A DNA stretch of 63,976 nucleotides, counting the filler, from Dugesia japonica (Eukaryota): the NCBI GenBank assembly GCA_001938525.1. It is 7 parts of 7 records of this genome, joined end to end, with 100 filler letters (N's around TTAATTAATTAA, not from the genome) between each part and the next. Parts side by side here need not be neighbours in the genome. Positions count along the whole stretch, not along the records: positions 9,458 to 18,347 come from MQRL01609631.1; 6 more parts are not named here. The stretch is one strand, 5' to 3'. Position 1 is the first letter of the stretch; each line of letters opens with the position of its first letter. The notes beneath the pieces were generated by a model. That model saw only the letters and a list, made by a program, of their open reading frames with translations. It ran no database searches and had not been told where the DNA came from. This document shows positions 14,506-15,434 of the stretch, piece after piece. The position numbers and the translations under genes were made by a program.

Positions 14506-14910
14506 ATGCCAACTGAGGTGATAGTACAGCAATTATTGCTAATGCTTTATCCAGAGCTAAAGATATGGATTGGTAAATTTCAACTATCAGATAGTTTCAG
14601 ACCACTGGCAAAGGAAATAGAAGCAGCCATTAAGAAATTTCCCGCACCTAAAGGTTATAGTCATGGCACGAGAGACAATTTAGAAGGAGTAATGGATGAG
14701 TTATTACAGGATCAGCCAACAAAAGGAAGGTTAGTAGTATCTATAGCCCATTTAATTAATCAAACACATCTATCAATCGCTAGAAGCAAGCCGTCAAAAA
14801 ACTTCATTCTCAGTAAATTACGGATAGTGGATCTAATGCAGAACAAAATCGCACCGTTGATAAAGCAGCATGGGGGATGGAAAAAGTTTATTGAGGCCAT
14901 ATGCCCTAAG
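14506..14910 (+). CDS. Bcl-2-like domain, copy B (within ORF 14263-15234)
   Basis: BH1-like LEGVMDELLQDQPTKGRLVVSIAH (canonical F..V..ELF.DG.NWGRIVA.F.F) and BH2-like IAPLIKQHGGWKKFIE (canonical WI...GGW..F.E) at appropriate spacing. Confidence 0.72.
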
Positions 14911-15012
14911 CCTCAACCATCTCATGAAAATGTAACTAGAGTAATCAGAATTGTAAGGGATCAGTTAAATGAGATTGGGAATGGATGGATACGTGGGCCT
15001 CACCGAAATTCA

Positions 15013-15434
15013 TGGCAAGCATTAACAACTACAATACTCTTATTATTCTTAATGATGGGCAGAAGTGAAGCCATATTAGCATATGACTGCGATAGTATGC
15101 AAGTTGGGAAGAAAGTATTCTCATTAGTAGATACTGAAGAATGTCCGGACGCAAACCCGGAGAAAACCTCACTCCGTAATAATTCCATTTATCACTTGTA
15201 TCAGGAGTCAGATTATTATAAGGCCCAAGTATAAGAATGTATAGTAACAGTAAAGACGTATATATTTCATTGTGGTTATCACAGTTATACCTCGATAATT
15301 GACCCCGGAACGGTAAAACACCCCGTACATTTAACGGGCCAACAATGTGACGAAGGGTTTACAACCGGTAAAAGTACCATCAAACATGGAAATCAAGTTG
15401 TCGCTAAAAAGGGACATGTAATAGACCAACCGAT
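15013..15434 (+). pseudogene. env: Envelope glycoprotein, chuvirus-G/gB-like, copy B (N-terminal ~140 aa only)
   Basis: Signal peptide WQALTTTILLLFLMMGRSEA, then ILAYDCDS...FSLVDTEECP, YHLYQES, and after one stop ECIVTVKTYIFHCGYHSYTS...QC; colinear with copy A; cut off by the inverted element C. Confidence 0.8.

Follow-up and report, generated by a model that had tools for sequence, protein, structure and literature searches.

A Bcl-2-like domain and a predicted signal helix precede the envelope protein in a decayed retroelement fragment of Dugesia japonica

Results

A broken polyprotein gene carries a Bcl-2-like domain in frame with env

The window, by which we mean the whole stretch of DNA analysed here, comprises 63,976 nt joined from the Dugesia japonica assembly GCA_001938525.1, and its positions 9,458-18,347 correspond to MQRL01609631.1. 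The fragments considered (A to D) and their parts are listed below, with the evidence for each in brackets.

10355..13160, plus strand: fragment A, with gag (Retrotrans_gag, CCHC knuckle) and then a broken env that belongs to a different family and has a separate hydrophobic helix at 11763-11820 before YDC (Pfam)
13245..14330, plus strand: upstream part of fragment B in frame +3, broken by a stop at 13665-13667 and by a change of frame somewhere in 14239-14330 (colinear with fragment C)
14239..15234, plus strand: stop-to-stop frame of 331 aa with a charged linker, the Bcl-2-like domain, the hydrophobic helix and the env N-terminus, all part of a larger polyprotein gene that is broken (fragment B)
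14506..14940, plus strand: Bcl-2-like domain, about 145 aa, predicted to be all-helical (Pfam, NCBIfam, Atlas, BCL-xL alignment, Foldseek)
14689..14739, plus strand: BH1-like segment VMDELLQDQPTKGRLVV, with TKGR where BCL-xL has NWGR (HMMER alignment to BCL-xL)
14857..14895, plus strand: BH2-like segment LIKQHGGWKKFIE with GGW, which is also present in the inverted paralog (alignments to BCL-xL and to the paralog)
14923..14988, plus strand: an additional helix predicted downstream of BH2 and ahead of the hydrophobic one, with an alignable counterpart in the paralog (model helix H140-161, low confidence)
15013..15072, plus strand: short hydrophobic helix ending SEA, the predicted internal env signal sequence with a (-3,-1) signal-peptidase site (hydropathy, PF24664 match, fragment A pattern)
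15073..15444, plus strand: N-terminal 124 codons of a gB/Monjiviricetes-type env ectodomain, with a stop at 15232-15234, ending at the junction with fragment C (Pfam)
15473..17137, minus strand: fragment C, a paralog of fragment B in inverted orientation and with frameshifts, which covers the upstream region and the Bcl-2-like domain (15473-15945) and is cut before its hydrophobic helix (alignment to fragment B)
28329..32500, plus strand: fragment D, the C-terminal part of an env immediately ahead of protease, RT, RNase H and integrase (PF24664 positions 476-542, E 9.8e-7; RVP, RVT_1, RT_RNaseH, Integrase_H2C2, rve)

Frame +1 stays open over 14239-15231 and closes at 15232-15234. A preliminary description of this locus had reported one uninterrupted frame with a BH1-like segment, a BH2-like segment and a hydrophobic helix ending SEA-ILAYDC, and our coordinates confirm this arrangement: the apolar stretch spans 15013-15060, SEAILAYDC occupies 15064-15090, and the interval from the GGW Trp to the helix is 44 residues. 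As described, the motifs and env share this frame; its extent has to be revised, however, as it opens 89 codons ahead of the methionine at 14506 (M14506) and env is both broken and cut. Fragment B remains colinear with fragment C upstream of this frame, across the stop and the frame change, and M14506 thus probably lies inside a longer polyprotein.

The fragment B copy is dead: it carries stops and a frame change, and its env is cut at about 15445. It is likely a decayed piece of a multi-copy, env-bearing Gypsy retroelement of the Burro type. Burro, or GYPSM1, is the name of giant Gypsy-like LTR retrotransposons found in Schmidtea mediterranea and Dugesiidae (Jurka 2007; Grohme et al. 2018, as cited in PMC6431247). 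Gag comes before env in fragment A, and env comes before protease, RT, RNase H and integrase in fragment D; fragment B is without both ends.

The fragments around the locus

Three element families abut within 8 kb at 10355-18058 (A and B on the plus strand, C on the minus strand). The fragment A env runs in frame into the upstream region of fragment B at 13160-13245, and the fragment B env meets fragment C at about 15445. These junctions reflect either nested insertion with deletion or mis-assembly; none of the contig pieces listed spans 10355-18058, and no LTR pair was found among the 20 largest direct-repeat families of the window. Outside the elements GC is about 20-25%, and long AAT runs and numerous short N gaps occur across the whole window, which marks a fragmented, AT-rich animal assembly, in keeping with a planarian.

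By eye, the fragment A env is close to Smed_errantivirus_1/2, and 40 of the 60 corresponding residues compared are identical to Smed_errantivirus_2. Within fragment A, 11000-11780 (plus strand) leaves about 250 codons from the Gag zinc knuckles to env, far below Burro, and an internal deletion is likely.

A candidate ubiquitin-like domain lies at about 13557-13785 in fragment B, ends in LGG and is conserved in fragment C (0 of 2000 shuffles); it found no match in Pfam, NCBIfam or PDB. Farther upstream in fragment C, weak matches to the ubiquitin-fold-type RA_2 were obtained (E 0.008-0.045). A 328-aa frame of fragment C (16733-17716, minus strand) gave a weak RA-like match (E 0.008) and perhaps holds a second ubiquitin-like domain.

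In fragment D, the stretch between protease and RT (29340-29669, plus strand), the position of the dUTPase-like domain in Burro, had no Pfam match. A 298-aa frame 3' of the fragment D integrase (34098-34994, plus strand) likewise had no Pfam match; its sole PDB match is a small-RNA-degrading nuclease (E 0.23), and it is possibly a DEDD-type exonuclease accessory gene. At 35721-37076 (plus strand), a C3HC4 RING finger (Pfam E 1e-6) precedes a 324-aa frame that matched no family clearly, and the two are likely another accessory gene of the element.

Searches place the domain nearest to Bcl-2 proteins

A Pfam comparison had been suggested for this region, and for the 189 aa searched it returned PF00452 (Bcl-2) as the sole family listed, with E 0.0027 (0.0053 in a second search) over profile positions 18-100 of 100; the score of 18.7 bits nevertheless stays below the curated cut-off of 31.4. 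The sole family listed by NCBIfam was TIGR00865 (bcl-2; E 0.14, 12.1 bits against a cut-off of 283). A PDB profile search that combined the domain with two paralog pieces gave BCL-xL in 45 of 46 rows (best E 0.2), and the domain as a single sequence had no match among the PDB sequences. In the HMMER alignment, BH1 and BH2 are in register with BCL-xL, and the GGW of BH2 stands at the correct distance from BH1; GGW alone arose by chance in 1191 of 100000 shuffles. Matches in the ESM Atlas (0.83-0.86) comprised viral hypothetical, Mcl-1-like, adenovirus E1B-19K/Bcl-2 and poxvirus Bcl-2-like clusters. One family or clan was common to 9 of the 10 best family-bearing matches there, with low recognition (1655).

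Two AlphaFold models were unusable (pLDDT 46.9 and 41.7). When the second was submitted to Foldseek, a herpesvirus v-Bcl-2 ranked first in BFVD (E 0.99), and Bcl-2-family proteins filled 38 of the 41 rows among the PDB matches listed (best E 0.51, TM about 0.2). A structure-only aligner given the low-confidence model returned generic helices and nothing of the Bcl-2 type, and the Foldseek ranking likely mirrors sequence rather than shape. The earlier proposal of a Bcl-2-like domain in frame before env is thus favoured by five library searches, all starting from one sequence, hence not independent, and all scoring below threshold; the same arrangement is published for Burro.

The change of the BH1 signature from NWGR to TKGR, pointed out previously, is seen in the BCL-xL alignment. 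Only GR of the signature is left in fragment B, and the paralog reads IPKL. A hydrophobic segment does follow BH2 on its C-terminal side, but it is short and signal-like compared with the C-terminal anchor of Bcl-2 proteins. Taken together, the sequence comparisons suggest that the domain likely has a Bcl-2 fold. Its binding of BH3 peptides is doubtful, because BH1 is without N and W and the paralog without GR. Because the profile scores lie under the curated cut-offs, we file the domain on its sequence as Bcl-2-like and not as a member of the Bcl-2 family.

The protein sequence of the domain region is constrained among copies

The inverted paralog in fragment C is 37% identical to the domain over 94 residues and 33% over 52, and neither score was reached in 2000 shuffles. 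It keeps GGW, and its pieces alone gave no Bcl-2 match in Pfam or NCBIfam.

Over 461 bases (14650-15110), three DNA-type runs of one organism code yielded 1377, 1115 and 1110 contigs, figures that count contigs and not copy number. With more than 1100 contigs on these bases in each run, the element family is multi-copy. We classed the differences between copies one by one against the window codons for the 40 listed of 68. Silent differences made up 27 of these 40, against 11.4 +/- 2.7 expected, and none of 5000 simulations was as high; read in the other two frames, the same differences gave 11 and 5 silent ones. By region, 17 of the 21 listed differences through BH2 were silent, as were 6 of the 13 in the linker that follows it. 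None of the 40 alters the G or R of GR, the GGW or SEAILAYDC. The protein sequence of the domain region is therefore under constraint. At several sites the window differs from nearly all contigs, which indicates that the fragment B copy carries substitutions of its own.

The preliminary description had made conservation of GGW and GR a test of the Bcl-2 reading. In close copies, none of the 40 listed differences of 68 changes an amino acid of either motif, but the paralog, at 35% identity, reads PK at the GR position. Next to no reads covered the domain in two raw RNA runs (25% and 6% of each run read), and the protein collections searched for relatives yielded none, the sole 3 matches being repeat proteins.

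The hydrophobic helix resembles env signal peptides

No stretch of the 331-aa frame is more hydrophobic than the helix, which scores 2.37 over 11 residues but only 1.52 over 19 on the Kyte-Doolittle scale and has a core of about 13-16 apolar residues preceded by basic ones. When 15028-15444 was compared with Pfam PF24664 (Monjiviricetes_fusion), with X at the 15232 stop, the match (E 2.3e-21) opened at profile position 7. Consequently, the helix belongs to the env family profile and likely came with env. A site three residues ahead of YDC has small residues at -3/-1, S/A in fragment B and T/S at the same place in the fragment A env, in agreement with the signal-peptidase-type site proposed after SEA. 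By its sequence, then, the helix is homologous to env signal peptides, and we infer an internal signal sequence; as a tail anchor it would be short, and anchoring may be transient.

As M14506 is likely internal to a polyprotein, the helix would be an internal signal that tethers the entire upstream precursor, not the Bcl-2-like domain alone. This changes the earlier picture of an ER-anchored Bcl-2 mimic made at 1:1 with env. An equal ratio would hold, but would extend to Gag and Pol, since the unit is likely a piece of Gag...Ubl-Bcl2-Env-Pol; a free two-part Bcl-2/env product is not what the locus suggests, as release of a Bcl-2 mimic needs a further cut upstream.

Discussion

Our preferred explanation, which we hold with moderate confidence as a whole, is that fragment B is a decayed Burro-type piece in which a Bcl-2-like domain and an internal signal helix precede a gB-type env, and that in intact relatives an ER-tethered precursor damps host cell death. 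In such relatives, the whole is published as one Gag...Ubl-BCL2-Env-PR-RT-IN polyprotein, and Gag through the Bcl-2-like domain would be synthesized in the cytosol. With the helix at 15013-15072 serving as internal signal, the env ectodomain would then be threaded into the ER, signal peptidase would cleave after SEA, and a second membrane segment at the end of env would return Pol to the cytosol. On the cytosolic side of the ER, the upstream precursor would stay held at its Bcl-2-like end by the signal remnant, much as the E1 signal holds HCV core, and from that position the captured domain would most likely dampen the death of the host cell during particle production. An anti-death role is the likeliest one given the other death-related cargo of Burro; with its degenerate BH1, the domain may also have a structural or signalling role. 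Fragment B cannot perform any of this itself, being dead through its stops, frame change and cut env. As Gag and Pol are absent from it, the single-polyprotein reading rests on relatives.

Alternatively, the helix may serve as a cleavable env signal only, its remnant being removed by signal peptide peptidase or by the element protease to leave a soluble Bcl-2-like domain, a possibility that we place on the unlikely side. Bcl-2 proteins carry a membrane anchor C-terminal to BH2, and the spacing from BH2 puts the remnant at just that place, which argues for a retained anchor; moreover, no cut site was identified. An apolar core that is short, and weak over 19 residues, would nevertheless suit a signal only, as would the homology of the helix to the signal region of the env family itself, and HCV core is reported to be freed in a like manner (PMC7601889). 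The same reading draws on the fragment A helix, ahead of which Pfam, NCBIfam and alignment searches detected no Bcl-2 match.

We consider it unlikely that the domain is a Bcl-2 fold without BH3-peptide binding whose task is structural, as a matrix-like portion of the precursor close to the membrane, or else lies in binding immune-signalling partners in the manner of poxvirus Bcl-2-fold proteins. Some poxvirus Bcl-2-fold proteins have no death-control role, and the Atlas neighbours of the domain include poxvirus Bcl-2-like and B6 clusters. The reduction of NWGR to TKGR, and to IPKL in the paralog, points in the same direction, and a position just before the membrane helix of a Gag precursor would suit a structural part. 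Set against this are the absence of amino-acid-changing differences at GR and GGW among the 40 listed (of 68) and the BIR and MATH domains described in Burro, which point to death control (PMC6431247).

A bolder version of the preferred explanation would use one helix twice, first as the internal signal of env and then as the tail anchor of a working, membrane-bound Bcl-2 mimic with anti-apoptotic activity at the end of the Gag-side precursor, which a host protease cutting behind the upstream ubiquitin-like domain might set free, so that the retrotransposon blocks host cell death; we regard this as quite improbable. Least of all do we expect the Bcl-2 likeness to be a chance feature of a generic helical domain: sub-threshold scores throughout, unrelated Pfam matches of E ~0.001 in other frames of the window (Poxvirus_B22R_N on an integrase piece), paralog pieces without a Bcl-2 match of their own and empty structure-only searches would fit chance, but 83 of 100 profile positions are matched and both BH1 and BH2 align in register, the Bcl-2 family tops every library, and BCL2 is annotated at the same place in Burro (PMC6431247).

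With the layout published and the copy dead, the finding adds little. The Bcl-2-like domain and the helix do form a small testable unit with a proposed topology. If a tail-anchored Bcl-2 mimic proved true, this would stand as a clear example of a virus-style anti-death gene borne by a retrotransposon, and in an animal whose regeneration depends on cell turnover.

The preliminary description had rated the layout as new; a Bcl-2 domain before env is already known, and in print for Burro. Burro elements are described as having a single ORF of about 4,900-5,100 aa with Gag, MATH, Ubi2/SUMO-like, a BCL2-like motif, env and protease (Arkhipova and Yushenova 2019, PMC6431247), in the order Gag...Ubl-BCL2-Env-PR-RT, and the BCL2-like motif is credited there to Grohme et al. 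2018. Their env matches mononegavirus fusion glycoproteins and is termed the first env in frame between gag and pol, their cargo includes BIR and MATH domains, and meddling with host apoptosis is suggested as a possibility awaiting experiment (PMC6431247). Section 7 of that paper, on Burro, discusses no membrane topology and no shared signal/anchor helix. Such a shared role was likewise not found in the literature searched. By these descriptions, Burro resembles fragment B in a BCL2-like domain directly upstream of, and in frame with, a mononegavirus-fusion-type env, and resembles the locus in high copy number and in env before pol, as seen in fragment D; a candidate Ubl lies upstream in fragment B. 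Decayed Dugesia japonica fragments with stops and frameshifts are described as well (PMC6431247). Burro elements have long LTRs, a total of 15-30 kb and MATH/BIR/ankyrin cargo, whereas the locus is a fragment only, and fragment B, compared by description, is without Gag, MATH, BIR, ankyrin, LTRs and Pol.

Platyhelminthes elements of GAG-ENV-POL order, including six from Schmidtea, carry an HSV/gB-type env whose ectodomain may sit between two membrane segments (Chary and Hayashi 2026, PMC13524379); Bcl-2 has 0 mentions in the main text and 0 relevant ones across 7 supplements. Smed_errantivirus_5 and _6 share with our locus the gB-type env and its place before pol. Over the env piece 15235-15414, identity by eye is 28 of 60 residues to Smed_errantivirus_6, 25 of 60 to _5 and 17 of 60 to _2, and with less than 50% identity to _5 and _6 the locus belongs to another family, distinct from both elements.

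Cellular and viral Bcl-2 proteins (BCL-xL, Mcl-1, adenovirus E1B-19K, gammaherpesvirus v-Bcl-2, poxvirus) are like the fragment B domain in the BH1 and BH2 segments, the predicted all-helical make-up and the hydrophobic segment after BH2. Unlike them, the fragment B domain sits in a polyprotein, with a degenerate NWGR, an extra predicted helix and an env-derived, signal-like segment. For the proposed topology, the nearest likeness is found at the HCV core-E1 and pestivirus core junctions, in viruses and proteins unrelated to the planarian element and thus as an analogy of mechanism only: there, the C-terminal end of a cytosolic viral protein is the signal peptide of the glycoprotein that follows, and this signal stays attached to it after signal-peptidase cleavage; in HCV core, signal peptide peptidase then trims it (PMC7601889).
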